From: a virus
Strand: one strand, 5' to 3'
IMG/VR virus record: IMGVR_UViG_3300020596_000023
Span: 1-64,000 of that record
Length of the DNA stretch: 64,000 nt
The position numbers and the translations under genes are program-made. The notes under the pieces are model-generated. The model ran no database searches. It was not told the origin of the DNA and worked only from the letters and a program-made list of their open reading frames with translations. This document shows positions 4,105 through 64,000 of this stretch, piece by piece; within the stretch, counting starts at the first letter, position 1; every line of letters starts with the position of its first letter.

Positions 4105-4138
4105 GGAATCCAGCAGGCTTCTTCTTTCTACCGGCAAC
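4105..4138 (+). repeat. dispersed motif A copy 1
   Basis: GGAATCCAGCAGGCTTCTTCTTTCTACCGGCAAC. Confidence 0.9.
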
Positions 4139-4140
4139 TG

Positions 4141-4179
4141 AAACAAGCTGTAATTACCTAATTACGGCTTGTTTGTTTT
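4141..4179 (+). terminator. intrinsic terminator
   Basis: AAACAAGCTGTAATTA-CC-TAATTACGGCTTGTTT followed by GTTTT. Confidence 0.7.
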
Positions 4180-4202
4180 ACTTTAACAAAAGCAATTTAA
4201 CA

Positions 4203-4967
4203 ATGAAATATTTAACAGGCGATTCAAGATGGGTTACATTCTGCCCTAAATTTAGCAATTCTCTTTATTTAGATCAAGCTGGTCAGTTTGATGAAAGACC
4301 TCAAATAGTCACTGGCATTACTCAATTATTAGTATTACTGGCTATGCCAGTTCTATTAGTTTATTCAATTTATTATTTGTTTCTAATACCATTTATATTT
4401 TTTGGGTGGGGTGAATTATATATTAGTTTACCAGTTAGAACTGGAATACAAAGTTGGAGTAGTGCTTCTTGGGGATTCACTTATCACAGCAATACTGTAT
4501 GGATATATGTAGGTGGAGATGATCGTGGTAAATCGTGTAAAACCATAAAAATGCCATGGCATTCTTTTTGGGTAAGAACATCTACTAAATTAAAAAATGG
4601 TAATTGGTTTCATGAAACTATAGATAGGGAATTAGATTTTATGAATGAAGATATTATAGCAGTCGGTGGTTATGGTTGGTTAGAAAAAAACAAATATGTT
4701 GAAGTACACCCGTTTTTAGATAAATATAATAATACTACAGTTACTGCAACTGTAAGTATTATTAAAAGGGAGTGGAGATTTTATTGGCCTGTTTTGACAA
4801 AACTGTTTGTTAATAATGTTTTAACTATTATGGTAGAGTTTGATGAAGAGGTAGGTAAAAATAAAGGTTCATGGGAAGGTGGATTTGTAAGTTGTAAGTA
4901 CAAACTTAGAAAAGACGAAAGTGTGTTAAACTGTTTAAAAAGGCTGGAATCAAAACAACCATTTTAA
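4203..4967 (+). CDS. membrane-associated hypothetical protein
   Basis: Probable start MKYLTGD at 4203, since the track start at 4095 runs through a terminator; hydrophobic segment, Trp-rich. Confidence 0.7.
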   Translation: MKYLTGDSRWVTFCPKFSNSLYLDQAGQFDERPQIVTGITQLLVLLAMPVLLVYSIYYLFLIPFIFFGWGELYISLPVRTGIQSWSSASWGFTYHSNTVWIYVGGDDRGKSCKTIKMPWHSFWVRTSTKLKNGNWFHETIDRELDFMNEDIIAVGGYGWLEKNKYVEVHPFLDKYNNTTVTATVSIIKREWRFYWPVLTKLFVNNVLTIMVEFDEEVGKNKGSWEGGFVSCKYKLRKDESVLNCLKRLESKQPF

Positions 4968-4969
4968 TT

Positions 4970-5320
4970 ATGACCATAATAGAAGCTTTTGAATCAAACC
5001 CATATTTACCAAAGTTTATTCAATTTTGTATTGATCTAAATGAAGACATTAGCAGTTTAGATCAAGCTACTAATAGTCATATTTATGGACTGTTAGTACT
5101 ATGGCTGTCTACGGTAAATATCGGTATTAGTTTAACTAATACTGATATAATATCGTATTTCATAAAATCAGAACTACAAAATAAACTTGACATGGATTGT
5201 TTTTTATTTGAAAAACAATCTAGCTTTACTGTAATTAATCGTAAACCAAAATCGGAATTTATGAAAGTACTCATAGATGCCATAACTACACTAAAATATA
5301 TTCAGAATGATGACTTATGA
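4970..5320 (+). CDS. hypothetical protein
   Basis: 116 aa, overlaps the helicase start. Confidence 0.65.
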   Translation: MTIIEAFESNPYLPKFIQFCIDLNEDISSLDQATNSHIYGLLVLWLSTVNIGISLTNTDIISYFIKSELQNKLDMDCFLFEKQSSFTVINRKPKSEFMKVLIDAITTLKYIQNDDL

Positions 5321-6716
5321 CAATCTAACTGATGGTCAAAAGAGTGCGATTGAATCTATTAGAAAATGGATTCAAGAAGGTGCTAATGCTATGAGTTTTA
5401 CTGGTGCTGCTGGTACTGGTAAGACCACAACAATCAAGTTTCTGCTTGATATATTAATGGGTGAATACTCTGTACTGCTTTTAGCACCAACTCATGCTAG
5501 CAGAGGTATTCTATCAAATATGAGTGGTTACGATGTTTCTACAACCCACTCAGCATTAGGGCTTAGGCCTGATGTTGACCTTGCTGACTACGATCCAGAT
5601 AAGCCAGAATTTGCACAAACTGGAAAGTGTATTGTAAATAACTATGATATAGTTATTCAAGAGGAGGCAAGTATGATAAATCAAGAGTTAATGGATTTAC
5701 TAGTTAACTCTACTAATTGTATAATTTTTATGGGAGATGAATGCCAGCTTCCACCTATAGGTGCAGATTCTTGTCCAGCTTTAAGTTTAGAGTATAAGAC
5801 TACTCTAACTATGGTTATGAGACAAAAATCGAACAACACTTTATTAAAAGTGTTGAGTTTAATGAGATGTATTATTTCACAGAAATGTGGATATAATTAT
5901 CAAGATAACTCAGTTGAGTTAATTGAACAATTAGGATTAACTGGTATGCCTAGTAGCTGCTTATCATTAATTCAACAAGTTTGGAATAGTAATGCTAGTG
6001 ATGGTTCTATTTGTTTTGATCCAAAAGTACATCTATTAATAAAGGATTGGGAAATCTCTGATATAGATCGAGATAAGTATTTATTCACAGCTTTTACTAA
6101 TAAAAAGGTAGACGACCTTAATAGAATTTGTGCAGAACTCTTAGACATTAAACCATTCCGTGAAGGTTTTAGAGTAATCTTTACAAAAACTTTCAAAAGT
6201 GGAACTTTAGCAGATATTACTAATAATACTAGAGGTAGGGTATTACGAATTGATCCTACTATATTTCAGTATAAAATTGGTAAAGAAACTATCAATTGCA
6301 TTAAAATCATATTTGACATTGATGGTAAAGAGTATTCTGTATTAACTCCTACTACTGGAAATCTTGATAATTATATTATTAAACATGGAGATATAATAAA
6401 CGCTGCTAGCAAATCTAAGAAACAAGATAGTTGGAATGAATTTGAATGTATGATAGGAACAGTACAACCTTTTAAAGACTACTTAAACAAAGCGTTTTCA
6501 CAAGAGTTGGAATCAAGGTTTATATATGTTGATACTAGAAAACGTCCTAAACAATATATCAAGCCGGGCTATGCTATAACTGTGCATAAATCTCAAGGTT
6601 CCACAATCCCTACAATGGTTGTGGCAATTAATGATATTGCACAATCAAGAGACCTTGCAGATAAGCTACTTTATGTAGCTCTTAGTAGAGCTAGCGAAAA
6701 AGTTTATATCGTATAA
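5307..6716 (+). CDS. SF1 Dda/RecD2-like DNA helicase
   Basis: GAAGTGKT, APTH, EEASM, GDECQLPP, YAITVHKSQGST, YVALSRA. Confidence 0.92.
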   Translation: MMTYDNLTDGQKSAIESIRKWIQEGANAMSFTGAAGTGKTTTIKFLLDILMGEYSVLLLAPTHASRGILSNMSGYDVSTTHSALGLRPDVDLADYDPDKPEFAQTGKCIVNNYDIVIQEEASMINQELMDLLVNSTNCIIFMGDECQLPPIGADSCPALSLEYKTTLTMVMRQKSNNTLLKVLSLMRCIISQKCGYNYQDNSVELIEQLGLTGMPSSCLSLIQQVWNSNASDGSICFDPKVHLLIKDWEISDIDRDKYLFTAFTNKKVDDLNRICAELLDIKPFREGFRVIFTKTFKSGTLADITNNTRGRVLRIDPTIFQYKIGKETINCIKIIFDIDGKEYSVLTPTTGNLDNYIIKHGDIINAASKSKKQDSWNEFECMIGTVQPFKDYLNKAFSQELESRFIYVDTRKRPKQYIKPGYAITVHKSQGSTIPTMVVAINDIAQSRDLADKLLYVALSRASEKVYIV

Positions 6717-6740
6717 AACTAAACAATTCCAATTAAGATC

Positions 6741-6776
6741 CTACCTCTAAGTTCCCACTTAGGGGTAGCTTTTTTT
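6741..6776 (+). terminator. intrinsic terminator
   Basis: CTACCTCTAAGT / ACTTAGGGGTAG stem plus T7. Confidence 0.75.
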
Positions 6777-6841
6777 AACTAACAAAAACTTTTAAAAAGT
6801 AGTTAAGCTTTAACTACTATTTTTTCACCAATTCTAATTGT

Positions 6842-7348: not shown

Positions 7349-7352
7349 TACA

Positions 7353-7553
7353 ATGTCAACAAAAGGAAACACGCTTTCAATGACTATTGAAGTTGAATTG
7401 GGAGATGCTTTTAATTTATTACATGAAGAAGAATTCACTTGGTTTCAAAATGAAGTATTAGTGGGTAATGGAACTTTAGTGTTACACTCTGACGAAATAG
7501 GAGATATTATTGGAATTATAAAGAAAGTTTCAGATGTGCGGTATATCTCTTAA
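7353..7553 (+). CDS. small acidic hypothetical protein (cassette-like)
   Basis: 66 aa, followed immediately by an attC-like hairpin. Confidence 0.65.
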   Translation: MSTKGNTLSMTIEVELGDAFNLLHEEEFTWFQNEVLVGNGTLVLHSDEIGDIIGIIKKVSDVRYIS

Positions 7554-7559
7554 TATTAC

Positions 7560-7627
7560 TTATAACGTTTGGCAGCTAACTGAAAGTTTTTGTTTTTAAC
7601 AAAAATTTTAGTTAGCTGCTGTTAGCA
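7560..7627 (+). mobile_element. attC-like recombination site
   Basis: TTATAAC-GTTT, long imperfect palindrome GCAGCTAACTGAAAG...TTTTAGTTAGCTGC, then T-GTTAGCA. Confidence 0.55.
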
Positions 7628-7682
7628 AATGTAAAATCTCCCTTTTGAGTGTAAGATGCTCGTAATAATAAGCAATAATAAA

Positions 7683-7892
7683 ATGGAAACAGAACAAAGA
7701 CAAAAATGTGTAGTAAGGTATCAAATTGCAACTTATTCGGGAGAAGAGGTTGTTTATTGTGATGCCAATGATGATAATGATGTTATCACCGCAAAAGCCA
7801 AACGCCAGATAAAGCAAAAATCAGGCGGTTCACTACCCTTTGGTTACGAAAGCTATAATATCATTGAGCGTGAAGATTACTACGGAGGATGA
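7683..7892 (+). CDS. small hypothetical protein (cassette-like)
   Basis: Likely start METEQRQ; bounded by GTTAGCA (7621) and TGCTAAC (7919). Confidence 0.7.
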   Translation: METEQRQKCVVRYQIATYSGEEVVYCDANDDNDVITAKAKRQIKQKSGGSLPFGYESYNIIEREDYYGG

Positions 7893-7986
7893 GTGCGTTG
7901 GAGAAATAATTTTATTTCTGCTAACATACAGCTTTGCATAAATGGTGCTTATGGAAATAACTTTATCAACTTAAAACAAAATAACA

Positions 7987-8202
7987 ATGGCACACGAAAA
8001 CTTCAATTTAAACAAAACATCTCTTGACGAAAAGCCTGTAGTAGCTACTGTAGGCTTAACTAAAGAAGAGGTTGATGAATTACAACTCCTTAGATTCTTA
8101 CAAACAAGTAACGAAAGATACCTGAGTACATGGGAGTTTGATAGAATTGCAGAATTGAGTAGAAAAGAGTTTGAAAATGCAGGGTCGACCCATTGCATCT
8201 AA
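7987..8202 (+). CDS. small hypothetical protein (cassette-like)
   Basis: 71 aa; stop TAA lies inside the left end of the next attC-like site. Confidence 0.7.
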   Translation: MAHENFNLNKTSLDEKPVVATVGLTKEEVDELQLLRFLQTSNERYLSTWEFDRIAELSRKEFENAGSTHCI

Positions 8203-8300
8203 TGTTTGTCGGCTTAGCAATGTCTGGTGGCATTGCACAAAGGTTCAAGTTTACAACAAGGCTTATTGCCACCGAATATAGCCAAACCGCTGTTATGTGC
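8195..8300 (+). mobile_element. attC-like recombination site
   Basis: CTAAT-GTTT, arms CGGCTTAGCAATGTCTGGTGGCA / TGCCACCGAATATAGCCAAACCG, then CT-GTTATGT. Confidence 0.55.
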
Positions 8301-8477
8301 TAGGCGGATTATCAGCACTAAATTTAATTTGAAACGAAATGAATGAAGAGCAAGCAATGGATAATCATTTGTTAATGGTCAAAAAGATGAACTATTTGAT
8401 TATGAACGAAAGTTCTCAAAATAACATATAAGTTGTAGCTTTACGTTGGTGGTGTTTCCACCATTAAACTACTAATC

Positions 8478-8927
8478 ATGAAATTCTTAAACAAACCACT
8501 TCTCCTCTTCCAGTTTCTTTTGCTTCCTGTGCTATTAAGCGCACAGGATCCTTACAAGATTACCAATGAAAAAGCCATTGGCTTTGCAGCGATTGCGGCA
8601 GGATCTCTGATGGATGGGATCTTGGAAGGCTATCAGTTCGATGGGCGCAAGTCTTTTGAACGGAAATGGGGATCAGACCCTTATGGGTTTTGGGGTTCAA
8701 AATCATGGCAAGCAACGCATACGTGGTATGCCAAAACCATGGGCGTACCGGACTTTTACCACATGGCAGATGACACGCGAAAAATAGGCTACATCACAGG
8801 AGGTGTCATGATTGGTATTGGAATGAAGGATAATAAAAAATGGTGGCACTATGCTTTGGATATTGGGATTAGCGCTGTCGTAAGTGCTGGAGCAAAACAA
8901 GTAGGACTAATTTGGGTTAGGAATTAA
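8478..8927 (+). CDS. putative exported/membrane protein
   Basis: Signal peptide ending LSA|Q, Gly/Trp-rich amphipathic segments, visibly higher GC than neighbours. Confidence 0.75.
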   Translation: MKFLNKPLLLFQFLLLPVLLSAQDPYKITNEKAIGFAAIAAGSLMDGILEGYQFDGRKSFERKWGSDPYGFWGSKSWQATHTWYAKTMGVPDFYHMADDTRKIGYITGGVMIGIGMKDNKKWWHYALDIGISAVVSAGAKQVGLIWVRN

Positions 8928-8966
8928 CTTCCCTGCACTGAGCTAATCTAAATTAAAATTTTTACT

Positions 8967-9001
8967 ATCGCCGGTAGAAGAAGAAAGTCCTGATAACTTC
9001 C
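8967..9001 (-). repeat. dispersed motif A copy 2
   Basis: Reverse complement GGAAGTTATCAGGACTTTCTTCTTCTACCGGCGAT. Confidence 0.9.
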
Positions 9002-9040
9002 ATCTTCTACCGTTTTTATTTACTTCAAAATAATTTCAAA

Positions 9041-9211
9041 ATGGATGAGATAAAATTAAAAAAAGCTATTACTATACTTCAAAAAAAGATCACAGACTAC
9101 AAGCATAAAATTTCATTAGATACATCAACTCCAAAATTACTTGATATTAATATAGCCGATGCAAAGTTGATAATAGAACTCTACAATTTTTACAATATGT
9201 ACAAACCATAA
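9041..9211 (+). CDS. small hypothetical protein (not in ORF track)
   Basis: MDEIKLKKAITILQKK..., 56 aa, fills the gap before polA. Confidence 0.55.
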   Translation: MDEIKLKKAITILQKKITDYKHKISLDTSTPKLLDINIADAKLIIELYNFYNMYKP

Positions 9212-9221
9212 TAATCGTAAA

Positions 9222-11564
9222 ATGACTCTATATCTTCAAAATGAATCTGATCAAACTATACAGCACCTTCATAAGCTCTTCAACGAATCTTATGAAGGTG
9301 TTTTTGTTTGCTTAGACACGGAAACTACAGGCTTAGATGTATTAAAACTAAGGCCATTACTAATGAGCTTAAATAGTAATTATGGTACTATAGTTTTAAA
9401 TCTAGCTAAACTCAGTAAAGACTTTATTAAATCTATATTTAATCAATATGGATTGAATAAAACGTATTTAGCTCACAATGCTAAATACGATGGTAATGTA
9501 ATGTATCACTATTATGGACTGGATTTGGATTGGTATTGCACAATGGTATCAGATCAAAAGCTTTCACAAGGATTAGGTTATTCTGAAAAAGATCGGCCTG
9601 ATGGAGTTAGATATAATTTATCTGATACGGCACAAAGACATCTAAAAGTTCCCGCATTAAATAAAGAGCAGCAATTATCATTTGTAGATTATTTAGGTTC
9701 TGAGTTTAGTGATGCACAGATTGAATATGCTGGTAAAGATGTAGACTATCTATATCCTATTATGAAAAATCAATTATTGTGTGCTGCTCAATTTGGAATA
9801 AAAAATCTACTAACTGAAAGTGAGATTCTGTCAGAAGTTTGTATTGCGGAATGTACTGGTGTTTTAATAGATAGAACTAAATGGATTAATATTGCTGAAC
9901 AAGTATATGCAGAGATTCAGAATATTGCAAAGGAATTAGACCAGATAGTAAAGACTAATAAAGTTCTGATTAAAAAAAGAGGATTTATACCATTGTCTGG
10001 TAATTACGATTTATTTACTGAAACTGATTGGGTAAGAGAGTTCTATCAAAATAAAAGCAGCAAAGCTAAACTAACTGCTTTATTCAATCAAGGAGTTAAT
10101 TGGGCCAGCCCTACACAAGTAACTTTTATTTGTGGCCAGCTAAACTATCCCCTACCTGTTAAAGATGAAGATATTTATTTAGTACCAGATATTAAAGTTA
10201 CTAATAACAAAAGAAAAGTTATAAGTAGTATTAAATATACTACCAAAAAGGACAAGCTAGAAGTAATGCTTCAAAACTTTGAGCATCCTAATAAAGAGTT
10301 TATTGAATTGATATTCAAGTACAACTCGTTACGAACGCTATTTGCAACTTATGGAGGTAAGTGGTTAAATAAGCTGCATAATCATAGAATCTATACTGCT
10401 TTTAGAACTATGTCTGCTGTTACAGGTAGGTTTCAATCAGGTGGTGGTACTAAATTACCTGATAAAATCAATACTCAGAACATTCCAAGTGCCGGAGATT
10501 ATCGGCACTGTTTTGTCGCTGACAAAGGTCACAGCCTAATCACAGCGGATCTTTCCGGAGCAGAAGTAATTATCCTTGCCGATAAAGCGAATGAGCAGAG
10601 TGTGTACGACAGAGCCGTTATTGACGATGATTCTCACAGCCCTGTAGCACAATATACATGGCAACAAATATATTTATTCCGAGCAGGGAAAGAGATGGGA
10701 TTGTGGTACGACGTAGCCAAGTTCAGGCAGGAAAAGGACAATCCTGCTGTCAAAGGATATTTTAGCCAGTATGGTACAATTGAAGCTAAAGAATGCTTTA
10801 GGCTATCTCAAGAACTTATAGTATCTAAAAAAGAGAATAAGCATATTAGAAACAAATTCAAGAGTTCCACATTTGGTGGAATCTATGGAATGGAATTTCG
10901 TAAGTGTGCAGAAACTCTTGGAATAGATTGGGAAGAAGCTAAAGTAGCTTTACAATCCATGAAAGATTGTATGCCTAAATGCTATGAGTATGTAGAATCG
11001 GAAGTTAAGCTTGCCGCTAAACAGGGTTACTCTATACTTAATAAATACGGTGGAAGTAGAATTACTTTTCCTTTAACTCAAGCATTAGTACATCAAAACA
11101 AAAATGCTTATGATAGTATTGATGCAATCAAAGAAGTTAAAGCAGTCCGTAATTATCCTATGCAGGGTACTCAAGCTGATATGATTAAGCTTGCAATAGC
11201 TAACATCAGAAAGCTTAGAAAGATTGGACTTGAAGTAACTCTATTATTACAAGTGCATGACGAACTGGTCTATCAGACACCAGAACAATTTGATGGAGTT
11301 TCAAAAGCTTGGCTAAATAATAAAGCCAATGCTTTTGAATTTACGATAAAGTACGAAAGAGAAGTAAGCTTTGATTCGGCATTAAAATTTTGTGAAAAAT
11401 ACTCAGATCATGTAGTTTCTATTAAAACTCCTGGATTAAGTATTAACTATAAAATCAGTAATGCTTTGACTATTCCAATAATCATGCTGTATTCTGCTGA
11501 TCTATATCTTGAGCGATTTACTATGGGTTCAAGTTTAGAGGTGCAGAAATATTGGCAGAAATAA
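9222..11564 (+). CDS. polA: DNA polymerase family A with 3'-5' exonuclease
   Basis: Exo DTETTG, HNAKYD, YAGKD; TGRF; motif A DLSGAE; motif B RNKFKSSTFGGIYG; NYPMQGTQAD; motif C VHDE. Confidence 0.96.
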   Translation: MTLYLQNESDQTIQHLHKLFNESYEGVFVCLDTETTGLDVLKLRPLLMSLNSNYGTIVLNLAKLSKDFIKSIFNQYGLNKTYLAHNAKYDGNVMYHYYGLDLDWYCTMVSDQKLSQGLGYSEKDRPDGVRYNLSDTAQRHLKVPALNKEQQLSFVDYLGSEFSDAQIEYAGKDVDYLYPIMKNQLLCAAQFGIKNLLTESEILSEVCIAECTGVLIDRTKWINIAEQVYAEIQNIAKELDQIVKTNKVLIKKRGFIPLSGNYDLFTETDWVREFYQNKSSKAKLTALFNQGVNWASPTQVTFICGQLNYPLPVKDEDIYLVPDIKVTNNKRKVISSIKYTTKKDKLEVMLQNFEHPNKEFIELIFKYNSLRTLFATYGGKWLNKLHNHRIYTAFRTMSAVTGRFQSGGGTKLPDKINTQNIPSAGDYRHCFVADKGHSLITADLSGAEVIILADKANEQSVYDRAVIDDDSHSPVAQYTWQQIYLFRAGKEMGLWYDVAKFRQEKDNPAVKGYFSQYGTIEAKECFRLSQELIVSKKENKHIRNKFKSSTFGGIYGMEFRKCAETLGIDWEEAKVALQSMKDCMPKCYEYVESEVKLAAKQGYSILNKYGGSRITFPLTQALVHQNKNAYDSIDAIKEVKAVRNYPMQGTQADMIKLAIANIRKLRKIGLEVTLLLQVHDELVYQTPEQFDGVSKAWLNNKANAFEFTIKYEREVSFDSALKFCEKYSDHVVSIKTPGLSINYKISNALTIPIIMLYSADLYLERFTMGSSLEVQKYWQK

Positions 11565-16119: not shown

Positions 16120-16130
16120 TAATAACTTTG
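16100..16130 (+). promoter_or_regulatory. Bacteroidetes-type housekeeping promoter
   Basis: TTG (16100-16102), 20-nt spacer, TAACTTTG (16123-16130) matching -33 TTG / -7 TAnnTTTG. Confidence 0.6.
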
Positions 16131-16185
16131 TGCTATCAATTTGTTACATCATTTCACATTTTTTATAACAATTAATATATTATTT

Positions 16186-17921: not shown

Positions 17922-19004
17922 ATGATTCCAAATACAATATATTCTAAGAGCGAACTTAGGAAGTACTTAAAAAAATTAAATATAGATGATATTGATCTGT
18001 ACTCTATTTATACTGGATATACTAGACAAGACATATTAACATCGTTATATAATGGTAAACATCTTCATTCTTTTATGAGGTCTGATTCTACACCATCGTT
18101 AGGATTTTATATAGGTGACAATGGTACTATACGATTCAAAGATTTTGGTGGAGATGGTGGAGATGTTTTTACAGTAGCTAATATACATCATAGAAAAGCT
18201 TTACAAGGTGGATTATTTGTAGAGCTTTTACAAGCTATATACAATGACGTACTAAAGAAAAACAATTATACTGTTTCTAAGGAGCAGATCACATTATTGC
18301 CAAAACAAAAAGTTACTGTAGATGTAGACCTTAGAGATTGGTCTAATTATGATTATCAATATTGGGTTAGAGGTTATGATTTTGACAGTTTAGAAGAAGT
18401 GGAATATTATTCTACTTATGCTGTTGATATAATCTATCTCAATGGTAAGTTCTATAAAAAGTCTTCTCCTAAGTTTCCAATTTATGGCTATTTAGTAACT
18501 ATGCTAAATGGAGACTTCTTTTGGAAATGTTACTTACCAAAACAAACTCCTAAATTTATTACAGGTGGTATAGGATTAGATTTTATGCCTTATGTATTAA
18601 ATGATTTGAAACCAACTGATCCACTAGGATTAATTAAAAGTAGAAAAGATGCTATGGTTGTGTATGACCATATACAAACTTTGTTAGTACCAAATTCTGA
18701 AAATTCTACTGGTATGTCGAAACAAGAATTAGGCTTATTTAAGAATAGAAGAGTTAATACTTATATTGAACAAGATGAAGGAGGTTTGATAGGTATCAGT
18801 CAATTAGAAACAAATTTGGGAAAAACGGTAACTCGCAGGCTTCTCCCTTCTACCGGCGACGGCAACAAACAGATCAACGACTTTGCTGAACTTCGTAAGT
18901 TCTTACGTAAAGATAAATTTAAAGAGTTCTGTCAATGGTATTTTCCACAACCAAAATTAACTTTAACTGAAATTCATAATTTCATAAATAAACTAAAACA
19001 CTAA
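17922..19004 (+). CDS. dnaG: DnaG-type primase (crAss-like)
   Basis: RSDSTPS, FKDFG, KSRKDAM, PNSE, variant TOPRIM EQDEGG, NDFAE. Confidence 0.8.
   Translation: MIPNTIYSKSELRKYLKKLNIDDIDLYSIYTGYTRQDILTSLYNGKHLHSFMRSDSTPSLGFYIGDNGTIRFKDFGGDGGDVFTVANIHHRKALQGGLFVELLQAIYNDVLKKNNYTVSKEQITLLPKQKVTVDVDLRDWSNYDYQYWVRGYDFDSLEEVEYYSTYAVDIIYLNGKFYKKSSPKFPIYGYLVTMLNGDFFWKCYLPKQTPKFITGGIGLDFMPYVLNDLKPTDPLGLIKSRKDAMVVYDHIQTLLVPNSENSTGMSKQELGLFKNRRVNTYIEQDEGGLIGISQLETNLGKTVTRRLLPSTGDGNKQINDFAELRKFLRKDKFKEFCQWYFPQPKLTLTEIHNFINKLKH
18827..18860 (+). repeat. dispersed motif A copy 3
   Basis: GGTAACTCGCAGGCTTCTCCCTTCTACCGGCGAC inside the primase gene. Confidence 0.9.
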
Positions 19005-25814: not shown

Positions 25815-25871
25815 AAGAGTATGAATAGATTCTAGGAATAATAGTACTGGTAGTAAACCTACATTAATATC

Positions 25872-25909
25872 AATAACCCCAAAGTTCCCCAACTTTGGGG
25901 TTATTTTTT
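25872..25909 (+). terminator. terminator ending the + strand module
   Basis: AATAACCCCAAAGTT / AACTTTGGGGTTATT perfect 15-bp stem plus T tract. Confidence 0.85.
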
Positions 25910-26061
25910 AGCCTCGACTGATTTGTATTTGAAGGGGTCTGAGGCTGTACAGGATTACTCAGGATAGACGATAAATTTATAGTAATGTATTGGTATGAAT
26001 CGAATTGAGATCGTGGAAGGTGTGGAAGATATGGCAGCACTGTTGGATCAGTTTTTGCATG

Positions 26062-26096
26062 GTTGCCGGTAGAAGAGGAAAACCCTGCTAGATTCC
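26062..26096 (-). repeat. dispersed motif A copy 4
   Basis: Reverse complement GGAATCTAGCAGGGTTTTCCTCTTCTACCGGCAAC. Confidence 0.9.
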
Positions 26097-26129
26097 ATTC
26101 TTACCCAATTCTTACCCAATTCTTACCTA
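26097..26129. repeat. 11-bp tandem repeat x3
   Basis: ATTCTTACCCA ATTCTTACCCA ATTCTTACCTA. Confidence 0.85.
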
Positions 26130-26132
26130 CCT

Positions 26133-26165
26133 AAAACAAAAAAGGGGTAGTATTTACACTACCCC
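26133..26165 (-). terminator. terminator ending the - strand module
   Basis: GGGGTAGT / ACTACCCC stem preceded by an A tract on +. Confidence 0.8.
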
Positions 26166-37100: not shown

Positions 37101-40100
37101 TTTTAGCTAAAGTTAATTTGAACTGGTTTTTCAAAGTAGGAACTTCACCAGATTCAATCATTTCTGGAGTTATAGCAGATTTATATTTATCTCCATAAGC
37201 TTTAATAAATCTCATAGAAATTAATCCACCATATTGAATATATTTAAGTTGTTCGTCTGGCTTGAATATCGCAAAAGCATCTGGCAAAGCTTGACCTGTA
37301 GGAGCTTTAGAGAATCTGAGTATGTCTTGGTTTGGATAATTCATTTTAGCAGAGTTTTTAAAATCACCTCTACTAGCACTTTCAAACAGTAAATCAATAC
37401 GATCAATTTTACCAAAGTAAGTTTGAAGCATTCTATATAATTTCTCAAAAAATGCTTTTACCTTACGAGAGAATCCTTGTGGTTCTTTGCCAACTTGTTT
37501 AGTCAGCATAAAGCCTCTAAACTTCTCAGCTAAAAATTCTTCTACTCTAAGTTTGGAATCTTCTGTCAGTAAATCTTCTTCTAGTCCATATCTTTTATTA
37601 GCTTCTTCTAACAAATTCAATCTATCTGATTCATTCAAATACATATTGAATATAGCATGGAAAGCTTCGTGGTACTCAGTACCAACTATACTATATTTAG
37701 ATAGAGTTACAGCAGCTTTTCTAAATACTCCATAAACTACATCACCATTATCCATTAATTGTTCTGGTAATATTTCAATAGGAATTTCGTCACCTAGTAT
37801 ATTCTGGAAGTTTTCAATTTGAGATTGATTAGACTCAATTAATTCGTCTTTAGTAGAATTAGTAGAAGCTTTGAAGAATAATGCATCTGTGAGCAAATCA
37901 GTTAAATCTGAATCAGTAGAATCTTGAATAGAATTAGGATCAATTGAAGTGATAGCATCAACTTGAGAAAGATCGGAATTAACCGGGCTTTCCTCTTCTA
38001 CCGGCAATGGGTTAAGAACTGTATCACTGACTTTATCTTTCCTAACGTTCTTAGCTTCACTAACTTCCGTCTTACTCTCATCACTCCAAGTTTTTAATAC
38101 AACTCGAGTATTAACATTATCAACGCCATTATTAGCAGCAATCTTACCACCAAATAAAGACAGTATATTACCCTCAGAATCTTCTGTAGTTTTTATATTA
38201 ATTCCAAACCTATCACTATTCAAGATGCTATCATGAAGTTCTTGTTCACGACCATCTTCCAAATATAAGTTGTACCTTTTTCCAGACAGTACATCTTTAA
38301 GAGTGTCAGAAAATACTTCTCTATTAGCGTCATTTAGAACTAATATGTCTTTACCATTTATAGGAATCTTATTTCCAACATTGCTGTTATATTCCTCATA
38401 AGATTCGTACTTAGTTTTCTTACCAGTCCAAACCCTTTTAGTTAATCTGATCTCATCATTAGGAGCTACATAGATTGTGTACAACTCTGTATAATCTCCA
38501 TTTAATATTTCTATTCGACCTTTACTATTAGCATTTGGACCATGAACTAAAAACGTAGGAGCATATAGGTTATCTTTGGCATCTCGAACATTTGATCTAA
38601 ACAGAGTTATCCTATTAATAGCTTTTTTTATCTCAATCATTGAATCATCTTTAAAAGGACTTAACCCAGTCTTTAATCCTTTTATAAGTTGATTTAGTAA
38701 TTTAATAACGTCTGTAATTGACTCAGAATCTAATTTGTTACCGCTTATATATAATGGTATAGCAGTTTGAGTATCGTCATAGTCGGTAAAATCTATTGAC
38801 AAATTGGGGCTAGCTGGAACTAATACAAAAACATTACTTGAACTGTACAACATATCTTCATTGTACGTGGCACTAATGGACTTAGTGTCGTAGGCTTGAC
38901 CCTCACCGATGAGTGGGGATAATGTAGAGCTTACAACAGAACCGCCATCTTCGGGAATGTGGTACAGCCGTACAGACATAGCTTTGGCAATCCTGGACAA
39001 TAGAGAAAGCTGATTATTCCCAGTTTTTTTCCTTGCACCAGCAGATACTTTCTTTAATAAAATTTTACTATTTTTGTTTTTAGCAAAAGCAGTTCTAATT
39101 TTTACAGTCTCTAATAAGTTAACTCTACGAGCTAACGCAGCGTTTGAATTACCATCGGATTCAAGTCTGTTTATTTCTTTCTCAATAGAACTAACTCTAT
39201 TGATATAACCAATCAAAACATTTTTATAATAAACACCTATTGGAGCTTCGTTAGGGTCAGTTGATTTGAAGTTATCTTCGACTTCGGGTATTTTCAAATC
39301 AAGCTCAACTTGACCATCTTTTTTAATAATCTCTCTAAGCTCGTTAAGAGCTTTTACAGTTTTAGCATCGTTATCAGATATAACGATAGTTGTATCAGTC
39401 TCAGATACTATATCTGGATTGACTATACTATGCAAGTAAATACTTGCAAATTGGCTTTCATCTGATCTTTCCTGAGCTATTGAATCTTGTTCAGTTATAG
39501 CTTTGATAGGTTCTTGTTCTGTATTAGTATCAGTATTGTAAACTGGAACAAGTTCAGCAACTGTGTTTACTGTATCTAACTCTAATACAATCTCATCTGG
39601 AATATTATCTACAACTGGAACTTCCAGATTAATTGATTCATGTTCAGAGTTTAATTCAGTTGCAATAATTTCTCCAACTGTTGTAGTTGTTTCAGACTCT
39701 ATGACTTGTTGTACAATAGCAGAATTATCTTGAGTATCTTCAGATAACTCCTGAACAGTTAGTTCAAGTTGTACAGCAGATTTAACTGATTTAGTAGCTC
39801 TGGATTTTCTGGTTTTTTTAAAATTAGATTTAACGGATTTGGTAGCTCTGGATTTTCTGGTTTTTTTAGGATTAGCTATAACAGAGTTAAGATCAATTAT
39901 AATAGCTTGATTTTCTTCAATTGGTTTAATTAGTTCAATTGATTTATTTGCTTCATCAGAAACAATAGTTTCATCAGAAGCAATAGTTTCATCAGAAGCA
40001 ATAGTTTCAGAATCAGTAATAGTACTAATAATGTCATTTTCTAAATCAGTAGTATCAGCAATAGAACTCAAACTATCTTCTTCTGGATCAACTAACGTAA

Positions 40101-46488: not shown

Positions 46489-49400
46489 TAAATGTTTTTA
46501 AATCTAGTACCAGCAATACTAGGCTTTATGTCCAAACCAACTTCGATTATAGTCATCTCAATAAAGTTTGCATTAGTTATAACCAATCTAACTATGATAT
46601 TATTAGATAAAAATGGTCTAATATTCATAACCTTACTAGCATTTAAATTTGCAGTATTAGGTTCGTCAGTAGCTAACAAAACTGCATTATCAGGATTAAT
46701 TACAGTATCTCTGAATTTACCAAATATCCAACCATCACCCCTTTTAGCTAAGTTAGTATTGCCAATACCCGGCAAGTTAGTAACTCTACTTAATTGAATT
46801 AAACCACTACTTTGATTCTGATTGTAAACCATTATTTGATTAATAGTATTAGTATGACTAATGTCTTTATCAGAGAAAGCTTCTGTTAACCAACTTATAT
46901 TAGCTATCACCAAACTCTGTTCTGTATTAGATAGGCTAATATCAATGTAGCTGTTATAACTAAAACCATAGTAGTAACCTCTTAAATTTGGATTCAAATT
47001 GTGTGCCCACAATCCAAACAGTACAGTAGAAGGATTATTATAAATAGCTCTTAAACCTCTAATGCTAAACATATAAACAGTGGGAAAACAATCATGCTTA
47101 CATACCCATTCTTGTCTAGCTAAATCGTAGCTATAAGTATGACCAGCATTGACTTCCTTACCATCGCTAGCTACAGTTGTTATAAACAATCTATGAAAGT
47201 CTTTGTCATAACCAACTGTAACTCCTGAACCATTAAAAGGATTATCTAAGTAACTTACAACTCTCTTAAAAATAGTTTCAAACTCCCATCTGATAGCATT
47301 AGTCAATTCTTCTAATTGACCATTAAATAAATAAAATCTACCAGTAGTAGCATCAAAGAAAACAACTCCATTAGGACATACTATACAACTCCATTTACTT
47401 TTACTACCACTAAAAGCTCCATCACTTTCAATAACAGGTTTAGGCTTTTGTAAAAATAAGTCTGCACCATATAAAGCTACAGCACTATCACCAGTCTCAA
47501 GAACTTCCTGTGGATCAAAATAGTAAGTACCATATTCAGTAGTTACAAACAATCCATTATTATAACTTCTGACATTAGTAACTACACCAGTATTACGCTC
47601 CATTTCGGAATAGTCGTTAGCTCTAAATGTTCTGAATCGAATCATTGTAGATTCATCAGCTTGAACTAAGCTTCTAGCTATTCGATATGGAAACTTACTG
47701 ATAGTATCGGTGGAACAAGTAGTATCTTCCGCACACCCCTTTTTGACAAATCGCCGGTAGAAGGAGAAAGCCTGTAATTTACTGTAATCACCGTTGTATC
47801 CGTAGTAGTTGCCATGCCTTAAATATTCGATCTCATCAAATGGTGTTTCTACAGGTACAACATATTGATGTAGCATACTCTTAGGATAAAACTTTTCCCA
47901 ATCTTCTGTACCTTCCTGTCTTAGCCAAAGATTGGCAACATCATAAGCAGGTACAGTATATAATGCACCTACATAAGGATTAATCAATCCACTAGGAGTT
48001 GGCATTACATTGTGAAGCTTAAAACTATATTGAGCTATAACACAATCTCCTCCATGAACAAATCCTACTTCTAATGATGGTAAGAACGTAGTACCAGTAA
48101 AAATCAATTCTTGGCTATAATAATTATTATACAAGTCAGGTCTATAACTATAAAGGCTAGCCATTAATAAACCATGATCTGTATTAATCATAGTATTATC
48201 AAAGTCAACTTTTAAAGTTTCTTCACCTAACAAATTAGAATCAGGATCACCACTAATTAAAACATTCTCAGGATAATACTGAGTATTAGTAATCTTTCTG
48301 ATTGCTTCATAATCATTATCATCTATAGTATCTTGGAGCATTCTATAATATGATAAAGCCCCATTAATAAAACTATGATCTGCTTCAACCCCTGGACTAG
48401 TTTCAGGAATACTTATCTTAAAATGAGTCTTTAGATAATTAGCTGTAATAGTAGGAGTAGTATTTAATAAACTAAAATTGTGAAACCTAAAGCTTTCAGC
48501 ATGTTCTACAGCAGTATGACTTAATGGAAGAGCAACAGGATCAACACTGTTATACTCTTTGTTACTGATATAACCTAAAGCAATGTGACTACTATTAGTA
48601 AAGTCTCTTTGAGCATAAAAGATACCCCAATAACAAATCTGAGATTTCAGTTCATTTGGAATAATTACATTACTTATGTCCAACCTTAAAACTCTAGTAC
48701 ATAATCCATCAAGATCAACAATAGCTCCATCAAAAAATACATCATTGCCAAACCGTCTTTTGATATGTTCAAGACTTGGAGTCTTATGGTGTCTTACGTT
48801 TTCTCCTGCAAAGTCTGGAAAACAATCTGGATAAGTCTCAGTAGCATTCTCCCAATAACCCATAGTTCCATCAGCCTTAGAAGTATCAAAGACTTGAAAG
48901 AACTTAACCGCATTTCCTAAATCATTTGCAAGTTCCATTTGAGATAAATGAACAGCAGGATTAGCAGCAATAATATTTGCTAATAACGCTGTCTCATCTA
49001 AACCAGTTAAGTTAGTACTAGGTCTTGATAGAAGATCAAAATCATTTTCAGCAGAAGTATTTTCCCAATCTGTAGTGCTTGCAACTCTACCGGGAATATG
49101 TAGTATGTTCCATACTCCTTTATGAGTATAGAATCCTATGTACATTGCATAGACTTCATCGGGAAAAAAGCCTTGTAAACTTACTTGACGATTAGGGTCT
49201 TTATAACTTTCATCAGGTAAATCAGATTCAATTCCAATTGGAAATTCGTAATTCCAGTTAATTATAACAGCGTTAGCAATCTCTTGCAAGCTTTCAGGAT
49301 CAATACTATCTTCTGTAAGATTTCCTAAATACAATCTCTTATCAAGTATTGTACCAGTTTCTGCTTTGGTATATTTAGCATTTACTCCTAAAACTTCTTC

Positions 49401-50336: not shown

Positions 50337-50968
50337 TAGCCTCTAGTTGATGGTAAGTTAAATATTCGCTTGTTTGCGTAGAAGGATTCTTCCGGACTTG
50401 GAGTATTACAAGCATTCCTAGCTCTACTCCTATAAATTTCACATAGTTGCATTAATTCAGGATAACCAAACATAGGATGCTTTAGACCTCTTAAAGTCAA
50501 GTATGTAATAACCTTATAAGAAATATAGTCTAGCAAAGGTTCTATTGCTGGTATCTGTAATTGACCACTAATTGTCGGATAATAGTGAATATCTACATGA
50601 CCACTTTCTGTACCAAACCATACATAAGGATACTCTAAGTAGTAGACATTTACTCTATAATCAGCAACAGCAAAGTTTCTAGTTCCTTGTAAAGATGGAT
50701 TGTAAAACACAGGAGCTAATATGTTATTGCCAATCTGCAATTTATCTAAAGCTTCAAAAGTACAAGGTAGTTTCAGTTTGTAATTAGCTATAACTGAATC
50801 AGCATCTACAACTATACCAAAAATATCCTTATTAGCCATATCTCTAAAACAACCTAGAACCCATCCATCTAAGTCACCTCTCCAACCATCTTCTGTAATA
50901 CCAAAGTTAGTTGCTAGTCTGGAAACAAACGTGTCAAGACTAATCCGTTTATGAATGCTTACGCTCAT
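50336..50968 (-). CDS. tail ring/tubular protein
   Basis: 210 aa; KLPC, HVDIHYY, IP pattern; crAss-like synteny. Confidence 0.65.
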   Translation of the reverse strand: MSVSIHKRISLDTFVSRLATNFGITEDGWRGDLDGWVLGCFRDMANKDIFGIVVDADSVIANYKLKLPCTFEALDKLQIGNNILAPVFYNPSLQGTRNFAVADYRVNVYYLEYPYVWFGTESGHVDIHYYPTISGQLQIPAIEPLLDYISYKVITYLTLRGLKHPMFGYPELMQLCEIYRSRARNACNTPSPEESFYANKRIFNLPSTRG

Positions 50969-51746
50969 ACTTTTGGTATGTTAATGCTAGATCAGGATTT
51001 GCCTGTATAGCTTTTGTGAAAACTCTTAGAGCATTAAGATTATCTACAGTTCTTGTAAGATGATAACTACCATATTTTATATAACTCAAAGTGTAGTTAT
51101 TCAATTCCTTACAATACTTAGGTCTATACTGTATTCTTAACCACGGCTTAGGTTTATCGTAATATTCAAAGTACTTCTGACCATCAAGACAATCCTTGCT
51201 ATACACTTTAATACCCTGAGCTTCCAAGGCTTTTTTATTCCTAAAGCTTTTGACTCTATCTAATAAAAGTCTAGGCTTATCATTCTCATCCAGCTTAACT
51301 CGTGGTATATAGATTATAGCTTTTAAATTAAAAAAGACTTGACCATTCCAAGTAAGACAAGGTTCCTTACTTTTATGAATCAGTTGTTCTAGTATCCATG
51401 AATTATAAAAAGCTAAATTAATTACGTATTCTTCATAAGTTAAGTTATTAGCTATACCGTAATAAGCTAATTTATCTTCTAACTCATTTATATTTACTTT
51501 ATAACTATCCCTGTCTTTAAGCATCCGTTCTGACAAGTCTGACTCCATCTGCCCAATTAAAGAATTAATTCGTTCTATCTGATTTTTATAAACTTTGTGC
51601 TGTTGTACTAATTCAAATACTTTTGAATGAATGTATCTTTTGAAAAATACGTAAGCTTCTTTGTTTTCTCGAATCTTACATAAAGAAACTTTAAGTCCAA
51701 ATCCGTTTGGATTAATTTTAACCTTGACCTGATTCTGAATTTGCAT
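50949..51746 (-). CDS. basic protein at the position of the crAss IHF-like gene
   Basis: 265 aa, Lys/Tyr-rich, LTYEEY...N...LI pattern; synteny. Confidence 0.5.
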   Translation of the reverse strand: MQIQNQVKVKINPNGFGLKVSLCKIRENKEAYVFFKRYIHSKVFELVQQHKVYKNQIERINSLIGQMESDLSERMLKDRDSYKVNINELEDKLAYYGIANNLTYEEYVINLAFYNSWILEQLIHKSKEPCLTWNGQVFFNLKAIIYIPRVKLDENDKPRLLLDRVKSFRNKKALEAQGIKVYSKDCLDGQKYFEYYDKPKPWLRIQYRPKYCKELNNYTLSYIKYGSYHLTRTVDNLNALRVFTKAIQANPDLALTYQKYERKHS

Positions 51747-57237: not shown

Positions 57238-57239
57238 TG

Positions 57240-60375: not shown

Positions 60376-60386
60376 ATCTACAAAAG

Positions 60387-61349: not shown

Positions 61350-61388
61350 TACTATTAAGTTTATTTTAGTTTTTAAAATCAGTCTCTA

Positions 61389-62891
61389 CTAATAACCGAA
61401 TGCGGTATAATCTGGTTGGAACTGAACTGACCAAGTGTCATTAAACATAACCAAACCTTGAGTGCATAAGAAGTGAACACTTGTACGATCTGTACCAGTA
61501 GCAAGCTGCAAGTATTCTCCATTACCCTTGTAATTCAAGAACCCTGTCTTACTTACATCTGCCATACCTTGTTCCAAGCCTTTAACTTCACCACGACCAG
61601 CTTCCGACAACAATTGTAAGTTGCTTTGACCATCATAGTCAGAAGCATCTACAATGTAGGCTTCATAACTTGCAAGACTACGACCACTTACAGGGTGAAT
61701 TGGAGCAGCATCAGCATAACCAGACTTATTCAAAAATTCCAATGGAACCAATACATAAGTAGGGCCATCAATATGCTTGTAAGCTTGAATGTAGTTACCC
61801 AAAGTCAAACGACCTTGCACTTCACTCAAGAAGTCTTTACTAGTATTAGCAGATACTAATTGGAAGATTCGAGAATCAACCATAGCATTATGCCATTCCT
61901 CAGCAAAACCACCACCACAGAAAATTGGAATAGTTTGATTGCCATCATCAGGCTTACCACGGAAAGTTGCACCAAGAATCCTATTGATATAAGATTCCGT
62001 CAAAGTTGAGTAAGTCAATGATTGTGTAATCTGCTGCTTCAAACCGGGAGCAGAAGGAACATAATCATTACTGTAATCATCAAACAAGTGAGTTGTACCG
62101 TCAGCAGCATAGCTATATTCAGACAAGAACAATTCCATGTGTTTGTCTTTCTTAAATTCCAACCATTGCTGGAACTCATACCAAGACAACCAGTAGTTAC
62201 TGTTATTACCCATAGTATCAACAAAGTTAAATTCTACCACTTTGTTGGCAATGTTACCTGCCATGTGATAAGACTTACGCAATGTGTTGATACAGCCCTT
62301 CCGACGACCCGGAGTTTGAACATGTCCGTAGTTGCCAATAGAATTAGCAACACTAACTTTACCCGGACCGACTTGACCCCAAATTGCATTAGGTAAAGTA
62401 TCACGATACGGAATAGTAGCACCTGGTCTAATTGCCATCAATCGGTAACGATACCGACTTTCACTAATACGTTTTGGTGTATCTTGTACACGACAAATTA
62501 CACCTGATGGAGAACGAACAGAAGTTTCATAGATAAACCAATCGGTTTTGAAATCCAGAATAACTTCCATACCACCACCAATAGTATCGGATGAGGCGTA
62601 ACTAGAAGCAGCTACAGCCTCAGTTTCTTTCATAGCACCAATAACCGGATACTCAAAGAAATGATTGTGTACTTCTGCTTTACCAATTCTACCACCACCT
62701 TCTAGCATTGCTAAGAGAGGAAACATTTTAGAACTATCATTCCAATTTCCCATCAACTTAGTAATGACTGGCCTCAACAAGTCTGGTTGAGACATATAAG
62801 CAGAAGTCAGGTTATTAACTGAGGTAAACTTATCTGTATTGATTCCCTCAGCATGTACCGTGATCCTACTATGCAGATCATTTGCTGCCAT
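61389..62891 (-). CDS. major capsid protein
   Basis: 500 aa; LRKSYHMAGN, SAPGLKQQI, CGGG, YKHIDG, IHPVSG, crAss-like MCP patterns. Confidence 0.88.
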   Translation of the reverse strand: MAANDLHSRITVHAEGINTDKFTSVNNLTSAYMSQPDLLRPVITKLMGNWNDSSKMFPLLAMLEGGGRIGKAEVHNHFFEYPVIGAMKETEAVAASSYASSDTIGGGMEVILDFKTDWFIYETSVRSPSGVICRVQDTPKRISESRYRYRLMAIRPGATIPYRDTLPNAIWGQVGPGKVSVANSIGNYGHVQTPGRRKGCINTLRKSYHMAGNIANKVVEFNFVDTMGNNSNYWLSWYEFQQWLEFKKDKHMELFLSEYSYAADGTTHLFDDYSNDYVPSAPGLKQQITQSLTYSTLTESYINRILGATFRGKPDDGNQTIPIFCGGGFAEEWHNAMVDSRIFQLVSANTSKDFLSEVQGRLTLGNYIQAYKHIDGPTYVLVPLEFLNKSGYADAAPIHPVSGRSLASYEAYIVDASDYDGQSNLQLLSEAGRGEVKGLEQGMADVSKTGFLNYKGNGEYLQLATGTDRTSVHFLCTQGLVMFNDTWSVQFQPDYTAFGY

Positions 62892-62924
62892 ACAATAAAA
62901 ATTAAATTAGGTTATAGAATACTT

Positions 62925-64000
62925 TTAAAATACCAATTTAGATACATCAGCTTTTACTTCAACCCCACCATTTCCAGTATTTATTCTTTGTGTTGGTGGT
63001 GCAGTAGTTTGTTTAGTTATAATAGCTTTAACTGTACGTCTTGTAGTATCAGAAGTAGCTTTTACTAAAAGCTTATTAAAATCAGCTAATTTAATTTTAC
63101 CAGTACTAACTGCATACCTTAGATATTTCTCAGCAAGGAAATGCTCATCAGTCATAACTTTACTAAACTTAGCTTCTTCTGTTTCACCATTTTTAGGTTC
63201 GGCTAAAAACTTATAAAAATTAGTAGCATCGGAAGCTTCCAGTTTAAATCCGTTCAAATCCAAACTATTTATCTTAGATTCAACTTTACCCCAATAAGCC
63301 TTACGATCTGCTAATTCTTTAGATTGTTGTATACTAGCTTTTTCAACCTTCAATTGATCTTGCTCTTGATAGAACTTAGTCAAAGACTCTTTAGCAGTTT
63401 TATAATAGTCTGAAAGCTGTTCGGTGTCTCTCAAAGCCGTATAGATGCTCTCAGGGTCTTTCACATGAGCGACATTGGTAAGGAAATGTAGCACTACAGA
63501 CTTGGTTTGATCTGCTGATGGTGTTTCTGATATGCTTCCAAAATCAATCCTGTCATTATTATTACGAGCCAAAAATTGATCCACTGTGCCGCCACCTATT
63601 AGATGTAGGATAAGATCAGAAGCTATTGGGTTGTCTTTACCTAAGTCTTCAATAGTTGCTAAGGTTTGAGCTTGGCCAACCTTTGTGACAATATCAATTA
63701 AAGATTCAGCCGAACCGTTAAAAAACAAGCTTCTCTCTTCTACCGGCAATAGTGAAAGAACAGGTTCAAGTCGTTCTTGCACTATTTTGTTTAAAATAAT
63801 ATGATCTACATTTACATCTTCATTTAAACCAACTTCACCAGTCTCTTCATTAAAACTAAATTCTTCTTTCTTTGCAATAAGAAAGTCTTTACCATCTCGT
63901 TGTACAAACAAGTTACCATCTGCACCAATTATGTAAGGTAATTCATCAGTAGTACTAGTTTCTCCAGTAGTCTCAAGACTATCAGAAGTATCGGTACTAT
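62925..64000 (-). CDS. putative scaffold-like protein upstream of MCP (probably 5'-truncated by the window)
   Basis: Acidic helical ORF; frame appears to stay open to the window edge. Confidence 0.6.
   Translation of the reverse strand, partial: STDTSDSLETTGETSTTDELPYIIGADGNLFVQRDGKDFLIAKKEEFSFNEETGEVGLNEDVNVDHIILNKIVQERLEPVLSLLPVEERSLFFNGSAESLIDIVTKVGQAQTLATIEDLGKDNPIASDLILHLIGGGTVDQFLARNNNDRIDFGSISETPSADQTKSVVLHFLTNVAHVKDPESIYTALRDTEQLSDYYKTAKESLTKFYQEQDQLKVEKASIQQSKELADRKAYWGKVESKINSLDLNGFKLEASDATNFYKFLAEPKNGETEEAKFSKVMTDEHFLAEKYLRYAVSTGKIKLADFNKLLVKATSDTTRRTVKAIITKQTTAPPTQRINTGNGGVEVKADVSKLVF
63717..63750 (+). repeat. dispersed motif A copy 7
   Basis: GTTAAAAAACAAGCTTCTCTCTTCTACCGGCAAT inside the gene (antisense). 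Confidence 0.9.

Follow-up and report, generated by a model that had tools for sequence, protein, structure and literature searches.

The window analysed here, the first 64,000 bases of the single 73,196-bp contig IMGVR_UViG_3300020596_000023 (a genome labelled G000), carries seven copies of an asymmetric DNA word, TTCTACCGGC, which is one dialect of a family of sites dispersed through many crAss-like phage genomes. The site is real and selected at the level of DNA, it is used without regard to strand or gene, and neighbouring copies that lie close together are inverted. Our preferred reading, to which we assign a probability of about 35%, is that the motif is recognised, on the strand that bears it, by a phage enzyme of replication or recombination that evolves along with the site and acts in priming, nicking or nuclease control. 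G000 itself is a distant crAss-like phage, its capsid protein being <30% identical to that of every deposited crAss phage; a capsid search matched 37 deposited records, all at <60%. The metagenome runs holding its DNA are labelled microbial mat and freshwater.

Within the window, TTCTACCGGC occurs in seven exact copies, against 0.02 expected from dinucleotide shuffles, none of 100 of which reached seven. The initial annotation, made from the letters of the window, had estimated far fewer than one chance copy of this 10-mer, and the positions and strands that it gave for all seven are correct. The whole genome holds the same seven, the remaining 9 kb adding none, so that its description of the motif as genome-wide holds for G000; the wider crAss-phage family lay beyond its reach. 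Allowing one mismatch in the core yielded zero extra sites versus 1.13 expected, and a second-order Markov census ranked TTCTACCGGC as the most improbable 10-mer in the genome (expected 0.074, p=2e-12). Synonymous-codon shuffling within genes, which left the three intergenic copies untouched, did not retain the four coding copies in any of 200 genomes (184 retained none, 16 retained one), and the claim of a constrained DNA word thus withstood a codon-shuffled background. Taken together, the shuffles, the mismatch count, the Markov census and the codon shuffle rule out chance or codon bias as the source of the seven copies. These are, in window coordinates:

Copy 1: 4104..4155, core 4126-4135, + strand; probably intergenic, 67 nt upstream of, and co-directional with, the ATG at 4203 (Acb3-like gene).
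Copy 2 and partner: 8950..9014, core 8970-8979, − strand, with a degenerate inverted TTCTACCGTT at 9005-9014, + strand; between gene 8478-8927 and the PolA gene.
Copy 3: 18826..18877, core 18848-18857, + strand; sense in the primase gene 17922-19004, reads LLPSTGD.
Copy 4: 26045..26097, core 26065-26074, − strand; intergenic island between the convergent gene arms.
Copy 5: 37974..38025, core 37996-38005, + strand; antisense in the RNA polymerase gene 31165-42477 (−), reads PLPVEEES.
Copy 6: 47733..47784, core 47753-47762, − strand; sense in a 1282-aa virion structural gene 46488-50336 (−), reads FYRR.
Copy 7: 63716..63767, core 63738-63747, + strand; antisense in a 393-aa gene 62925-64106 (−) beside the major capsid gene, reads LLPVEERS.

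Aligned with one another, the copies agree over ~35 nt as CGGWA-N5-CAGGCTT-YYYYY-TTCTACCGGC-RAY, confirming the flanking consensus that had been drawn around the core. The five Y positions switch between C and T and are always pyrimidine, two copies have one additional base in the left flank, and an A-rich box, AAARAAC(W)G, begins 5-9 nt past the core, so that ~35-50 nt are held in common. In strains at 98-99% identity, all cores covered by the alignments are unchanged. The other repeated words of G000, CAAGATCGTA and AAAGACTTGA, form no coherent family. As to position, three copies had been called intergenic, which is right for 8970 and 26065 and holds for 4126 only if the gene begins at ATG 4203 rather than at TTG 4095, since an ORF starting from that TTG would enclose the copy. 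The four coding copies had been said to translate differently; their readings (PSTGD, FYRR, LPVEEES, LPVEERS) are correct, but both antisense copies are read in the same frame (LPVEE[ER]S), leaving three readings from four copies. Copy 37996 falls in a poorly conserved linker of the 3770-aa virion RNA polymerase. The label "scaffold" for the 393-aa gene derives from gene position only, with no match in PHROGs or Pfam; the Pfam scan comprised 50 ORFs and the PHROGs scan 20 proteins, with the RNA polymerase outside both and the very large ORFs outside the Pfam scan, and about half of the genes had no family match.

Close relatives at 60-90% identity were not found: a metagenome scan with PolA returned only strains at 99-100% identity, IMG/VR scans with P0003 and P0023 as queries gave no match, and a homologue search with the capsid-adjacent gene recovered a 98% copy only. 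Capsid and terminase profiles identified four near-complete IMG/VR relatives of 79-91 kb and ~40% capsid identity (G001-G004, together with G000 the clade genomes; ORFs of the relatives are simple ORF calls) and several fragments. As a further genome we included the prototypical crAssphage (p-crAssphage, BK010471, 97 kb), whose gene context was hand-assigned from annotation tables. The exact G000 word has zero copies in G001-G004, and hits with one mismatch are at control level. An unbiased census nevertheless ranked first, in each of these four genomes, a GC-rich motif of that genome's own, dispersed and preceded by a pyrimidine tract, and versions of it are also present in the fragments:

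G001: CTATTACTGGGAA, 23 copies, 12 on + and 11 on −.
G002: TCTA[CT]AGGGA, 10 copies, 8 on + and 2 on −.
G003: pyrimidine tract followed by TTACAGGGA, 10 copies, 7 on + and 3 on −.
G004: TTTAGTAC[AG]GGCG, 13 copies, 5 on + and 8 on −.
Fragments L061/L062: TTACAGGCAAAG.
Fragment L077: TTACAGGGG.
Fragments L071/L080: TCAAAGGCGC.

The common denominator of the clade is a pyrimidine tract, T-A-C, one base that is fixed per genome, and G-G. In p-crAssphage, the most improbable words of the genome form a motif of the same build, YYCATC-CTC[TC]ACGGGG-[GA]GT, with 31 copies (13 on + and 18 on −); with this phage included, the shared core becomes a pyrimidine tract plus Y-A-C-N-G-G. The likeness to G000 extends from the pyrimidine tract, Y-A-C, fixed base and G-G to the use of both strands, the occurrence in genes and spacers, the inverted close pairs, the tendency to alternate and the division into dialects by lineage. 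The two differ in that G000 has C-G-G-C after TAC where p-crAssphage has a G run, in the longer conserved flanks of G000, in density (7 per 73 kb versus 31 per 97 kb), and in the polymerase, which is of family A in G000, a member of an environmental lineage, and of family B in p-crAssphage. For Cellulophaga phage phi14:2, neither the census nor the family patterns revealed a comparable word. The element of G000 is thus one dialect in a family whose members occur in very distantly related Crassvirales, although not in all, and the expectation that related Crassvirales would carry an equivalent motif was borne out in each of G001-G004 and in p-crAssphage. We found no published description of the motif in a search that excluded subscription journals and supplementary files; the motif strings of p-crAssphage matched only unrelated papers, and term searches of PMC10354031 and PMC8375218 gave no mention of such a motif. 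Two further IMG/VR fragments contain repeated words, ATCGTCTTTAT (L012, 4 copies in 17 kb) and ACCATCTTTAT (L004, 4 copies in 11 kb), which may be promoter-like motifs of those phages.

Gene context locates the constraint in the DNA. Coding copies in the five clade genomes are 27 sense and 20 antisense and use several frames, and those of p-crAssphage are 11 sense and 9 antisense, with 11 intergenic; sense and antisense copies in several frames rule out both a peptide and an mRNA signal. The frames in G001 are not random, 10 of the 11 sense copies reading [SP][IF]TGK, which fits tolerance of the encoded residues. In the RNA-polymerase alignment, all three sites that lie in well-aligned blocks are free of indels relative to the orthologues; GSSITGKEL of G001 aligns in this way over GNTFTGKEL of G000, pointing to a copy that arose by substitution. 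A primase of 56% identity, seen as protein only, keeps PSTG at the motif site amid diverged flanks and has LPFF before it, residues with pyrimidine-rich codons, as would fit retention of the DNA word. The proposal of the initial annotation that the constraint acts on DNA, independently of the direction of transcription, is upheld by these strand counts, by the relatives having versions of their own and by the codon shuffle, and a cis-acting site system selected at the DNA level is well supported.

Several identities of such an element were tried and rejected. An mRNA promoter is incompatible with the 27 sense and 20 antisense copies, a lack of co-orientation already pointed out for the seven copies as contrary to an ordinary promoter; copies are moreover mostly intragenic, and the unpaired intergenic ones of the clade point four times toward the downstream gene and four times away. 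As to a structured RNA, there were no Rfam matches at the gathering score and no tRNAs in the window, and six of the seven copies fold no better than shuffles. Avoidance of CCGG that left the motif as the only CCGG sites is contradicted by 74 CCGG occurrences versus ~57 expected. A miniature mobile element finds no trace in the alignments, which have no indel at the three polymerase sites and no terminal repeats or target duplications.

These last data also bear on the idea that the word is selfish, generated by biased gene conversion, biased transmission or a miniature insert and lacking a phage function. The ~35-50 nt shared by the G000 copies is long for point mutation alone, and the build resembles that of DNA uptake sequences (DUS/USS): a core with weaker flanks, both orientations, origin by substitution inside genes in tolerated, preferred frames, hairpin pairs in intergenic DNA, dialects at the family level and a density of about one per few kb, several of which hold for Chi sites as well. 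Uptake sequences and Chi sites are, however, properties of host genomes and host machinery, and we know of no uptake step in phages that reads sequence, nor of any phage process equivalent to sequence-biased uptake. The extended motif gave 13 single hits, in unrelated taxa, among 32 million genome contigs, with ~9 calculated for chance, and in 401 genomes sampled from the phylum to which a Pontibacter genome belongs, the 10-mer had at most 35 copies in any one, as did the reversed control; searches of the sampled genomes with the full words showed no enrichment of a host-wide kind. The element is also longer than Chi, and G000 has zero one-mismatch copies of the kind that decay would leave. 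Given in addition the missing indels, terminal repeats and target duplications, we regard a selfish origin as very unlikely.

The arrangement of copies along the genomes also looks structured. In G000 the strands alternate strictly (+ − + − + − +, six of six steps); in p-crAssphage the strand changes at 21 of 30 steps (p=0.02), with ten sites in a row alternating between 30491 and 58727, and in the five clade genomes at 38 of 58 (p=0.012). Spacing in G000 is more even than random, with a minimum gap of 4.8 kb (P=0.028) and a CV of 0.35 (P=0.017), and is likewise even in G004 (P=0.04) and p-crAssphage (CV 0.67, P=0.013). Using distance thresholds of 450 and 150 bp, both picked after the data were seen, all 14 pairs of neighbouring copies ≤450 bp apart in G001-G003 and p-crAssphage are inverted (distances 28-433 bp), and eight of nine pairs ≤150 bp apart are divergent, with their G-G ends outward. 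The 8970/9005 pair of G000 is divergent too.

Such an arrangement is a difficulty for a view in which strand is irrelevant and the sites simply bind a sequence-specific phage protein on duplex DNA, for organisation, compaction, packaging or stoperator-like regulation. An asymmetric 18-35 bp site is typical of a monomeric DNA binder, the 7-31 copies per genome and their near-equal strand counts would suit one with random orientation, and the C/T variation within the pyrimidine positions suits readout of shape or N7. Copies are also enriched between genes, with three of seven in G000 compared to 7% non-coding DNA (p=0.011), five of 13 in G004 (p=0.026) and 11 of 31 in p-crAssphage. Random orientation nevertheless leaves the 14 of 14 inverted close pairs and the runs of alternation (six of six; ten) unexplained, and most copies are intragenic, a location in which a roadblock would do harm. 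A DNA-binding regulator was not among the genes identified, and the IHF-like crAss gene occurs in the motif-less phi14:2 as well. The stoperators of Cluster A mycobacteriophages offer a partial parallel, with tens of copies of an asymmetric site across the phage genome read by one phage protein. Stoperators follow the direction of transcription, occur chiefly in intergenic DNA and are found in temperate phages that encode an immunity repressor; the present case matches them in none of these respects. We therefore consider a duplex-binding protein possible but doubtful.

Strict alternation might alternatively reflect sites of recombination or inversion that allow segments to flip, and a strain-variable cassette region does end ~30 nt from copy 8970. 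Exchange between the coding copies would, however, disrupt the genes for the RNA polymerase, the primase and the structural proteins, and the Pfam and PHROGs scans contained no recombinase. This DNA is present in 19 listed metagenome runs, as assembled contigs, and among the best-supported joints listed for the four runs in which joints were examined, none falls at 18848, 26065 or 37996, where contigs bridge collinearly. Site-specific recombination is thereby largely refuted.

A further explanation takes the copies as promoter-like starts for the giant virion RNA polymerase, giving non-coding, antisense or primer RNAs or holding the polymerase on packaged DNA. Promoters of the T7 type are ~20-bp asymmetric elements in many near-identical copies, co-directional with genes and mostly intergenic, and they require a T7-type polymerase gene; their upstream half differs between lineages, which all have a T-A step and then G-G. 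The conservation seen here, with its lineage-specific upstream part and shared T-A, base, G-G junction, resembles this, and some G002 copies read TCTATAGGGAG. The preponderance of divergent orientation among the closest pairs is what bidirectional starts would look like, and of the unpaired intergenic copies in p-crAssphage, as hand-assigned, six of seven face the downstream gene. Contrary to T7-like promoters, orientation is unrelated to genes, as documented above for sense and antisense copies and for the unpaired intergenic copies of the clade, and most copies are intragenic. No T7-type single-subunit RNA polymerase (PF00940-type) matched in the 50 Pfam-scanned ORFs, the very large ORFs being outside the scan. 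The virion polymerase gene of G000 (31165-42477) has 3770 codons, those of the relatives 3541-4047 and that of p-crAssphage 4070, so that motif-bearing genomes range from 3541 to 4070, compared to 2180 in phi14:2; the longer, fused form of the enzyme coincides with motif presence in the few genomes compared, a correlation with one negative genome. For phi14:2, early transcripts of the virion polymerase are reported to show no common upstream motif, which leaves promoters of crAss polymerases undefined (bioRxiv 10.1101/2020.03.07.982082). On balance, polymerase starts appear rather unlikely to account for the sites.

We return to the preferred reading, in which an enzyme of replication or recombination recognises the site. 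The seven copies would then be the lineage dialect of an asymmetric, strand-specific site common to many crAss-like phages, and a phage-encoded factor, evolving together with the site, would read the word and act on DNA, on the strand that bears it. Selection would maintain the site on both strands every ~3-10 kb, even within essential genes, and each site would mark the start or control of a strand-specific DNA transaction, be it primer synthesis, a nick or the switching of a helicase-nuclease. With an inverted pair, both strands would be served at a single place, and between genes such pairs double as hairpins.

The closest published system consists of the motifs at which T5-like, phiKMV-like and tf-like phages are nicked (PMC3517423, PMC11780129), namely CGACxxxxxCCTA/CTCCGG in phiKMV-like and TACT/RTGMC and WACTRTGAC in tf/LUZ24-like phages. 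They share with the present motif an over-represented, near-invariant, short asymmetric word in 4-14 or more exact copies, indifference to genes, variants in related phages, as if the word and an enzyme had evolved together, and, in two published consensus sequences, a T-A-C element at or next to the nick position. SNP clustering is reported near phiKMV-type nicks; beside our motif, strains of 98-99% identity displayed no clear clustering, a comparison of low power with ~2 changes expected.

A number of observations weigh against a strand-specific enzyme site. The published nick motifs, as described in the papers cited above, occupy one strand only. The motif here is distributed 4+/3− in G000, 12+/11− in G001 and 13+/18− in p-crAssphage, and the nick-site analogy drawn in the initial annotation fails on this defining feature. 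The G000 element is also longer (18-50 bp) than the nick motifs, and its frequent close inverted pairs would be hazardous if nicked: were all copies nicked, pairs 28-150 bp apart would produce staggered double-strand breaks. Known primases read ~3 bases and Chi sites have 5-8 bases, compared to 18-50 here. Across the five clade genomes, alternation loses significance once pairs <400 bp apart are removed (30 of 50 steps, p=0.10), and spacing is not regular in G001-G003. In the capsid-adjacent gene, the one gene where G000 and G001 both have a site, the two stand at alignment columns 192 and 163 and in opposite orientation; in the polymerase linker, the G000 and G001 positions match only approximately. 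Neither HNH, GIY-YIG, integrase nor T7-type RNA polymerase was present among the 50 Pfam-scanned ORFs and 20 PHROGs-scanned proteins, a set that does not include the RNA polymerase. Finally, the phyletic profile of the candidate readers given below includes one motif-less genome and depends on the sensitivity of tblastn.

Three proteins qualify as candidate readers, an assignment that draws on family matches and phyletic distribution:

17922..19004, + strand: candidate reader, putative DnaG/Toprim-type primase (PHROG DNA primase; homologue P0024 has PF13155, Toprim_2).
5307..6716, + strand: candidate reader, putative SF1 (RecD/Pif1-like) helicase.
Genome 70104-71132, beyond the window: candidate reader, putative PD-(D/E)XK-type exonuclease (PHROG exonuclease).

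Homologues of all three occur in all six motif-bearing genomes, and tblastn detected none in phi14:2, a profile that may serve as a lead. By the same method, a DUF932 homologue was undetected in G001, G003 and G004, and the RecT-like protein in G004. No homologue of the product of 50949..51746, which had been put forward for pull-down, could be detected in any of the four motif-bearing relatives, which makes this protein an unpromising choice as a reader for the whole clade. On the broadest view, many Crassvirales, from the prototype of the human gut to environmental phages with a family A polymerase, would have in common a strand-specific genome punctuation that is private to them and is read by a DnaG-type primase or by an SF1 helicase with a PD-(D/E)XK nuclease, a generalisation that we regard as conceivable but tentative. 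As a separate observation, a 276-aa protein (15289-16119) resembles RecT, gp18 of p-crAssphage (tblastn E=1.5e-4), and the exonuclease (phrog_298, E=8e-15) is encoded beside the terminase, 55 kb from the RecT-like gene; from their sequences, the two suggest a RecET-like pair whose halves are encoded far apart.

The surroundings of the intergenic copies add some detail. Downstream of copy 4126, a 254-aa protein (window 4203-4967) matches Pfam Acb3, a CBASS inhibitor (E=1.3e-21), and likely represents an anti-defence gene, judging from this match. The 8970/9005 pair folds as a strong hairpin (z=-4.3; none of 200 shuffles as stable), with TTTTT next on the + strand; despite this fold, a simple terminator scan of 8700-9300 made no call. 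To the left, window 7353-8937 is strain-variable, in that three metagenome contigs of 98-99% identity (L042-L044) diverge left of 8937, ~30 nt from the motif hairpin, and carry different or fewer small genes there. Copy 26065 lies in an island of ~230 bp between the terminators of the + arm (~25876-25906) and the − arm (26144-26165), making a role in mRNA unlikely at this place. Within the same untranscribed island, three tandem 11-bp TTCTTACCCAA units (26099-26131) adjoin the copy. In one strain (run X6), 44 bp are deleted at 25824-25869.

On the scale of the whole genome, genes are arranged in a + strand arm up to 25.8 kb and a − strand arm from 26.2 to 72.4 kb. The replication module comprises an SF1 helicase, a family A polymerase, a SNF2-type helicase, a weak DnaB-like protein, the 276-aa RecT-like protein and the primase, together with a uracil-DNA glycosylase and Gp157, DUF932 and RadC-like proteins. 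Genome positions 72,500-73,196 (L003:12500-13196) form ~700 bp of near-pure A/T made of 10-bp units, ATAAAAATTT and its complement, with ACTAGT/CAATTG palindromes. This region has zero motif copies and coincides with the divergence point of the gene arms and the minimum of cumulative GC skew, which make it a candidate replication origin or genome end. In the relative G003, the terminase (15907-16536, locus L029) is split in the simple ORF call, yet tblastn matches 811 residues; an intron, recoding or a frameshift could be responsible.

The most abundant viruses of the human gut are crAss-like phages, and how their replication starts and how their early transcription proceeds are largely obscure. 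A selected signal of 7-31 copies, kept even within essential genes and alike in build across very distant crAss lineages, points to a central DNA transaction that has not been described. The present analysis extends the family to an environmental clade with a family A polymerase, isolates the shared core and puts forward three candidate readers. The motif also offers a practical signature by which such phages can be recognised and sub-typed in metagenomes. If the enzyme reading is true, DNA synthesis would be started, or a nuclease tamed, at many points on both strands, and these phages would possess a phage-encoded counterpart of primosome or Chi-type systems.

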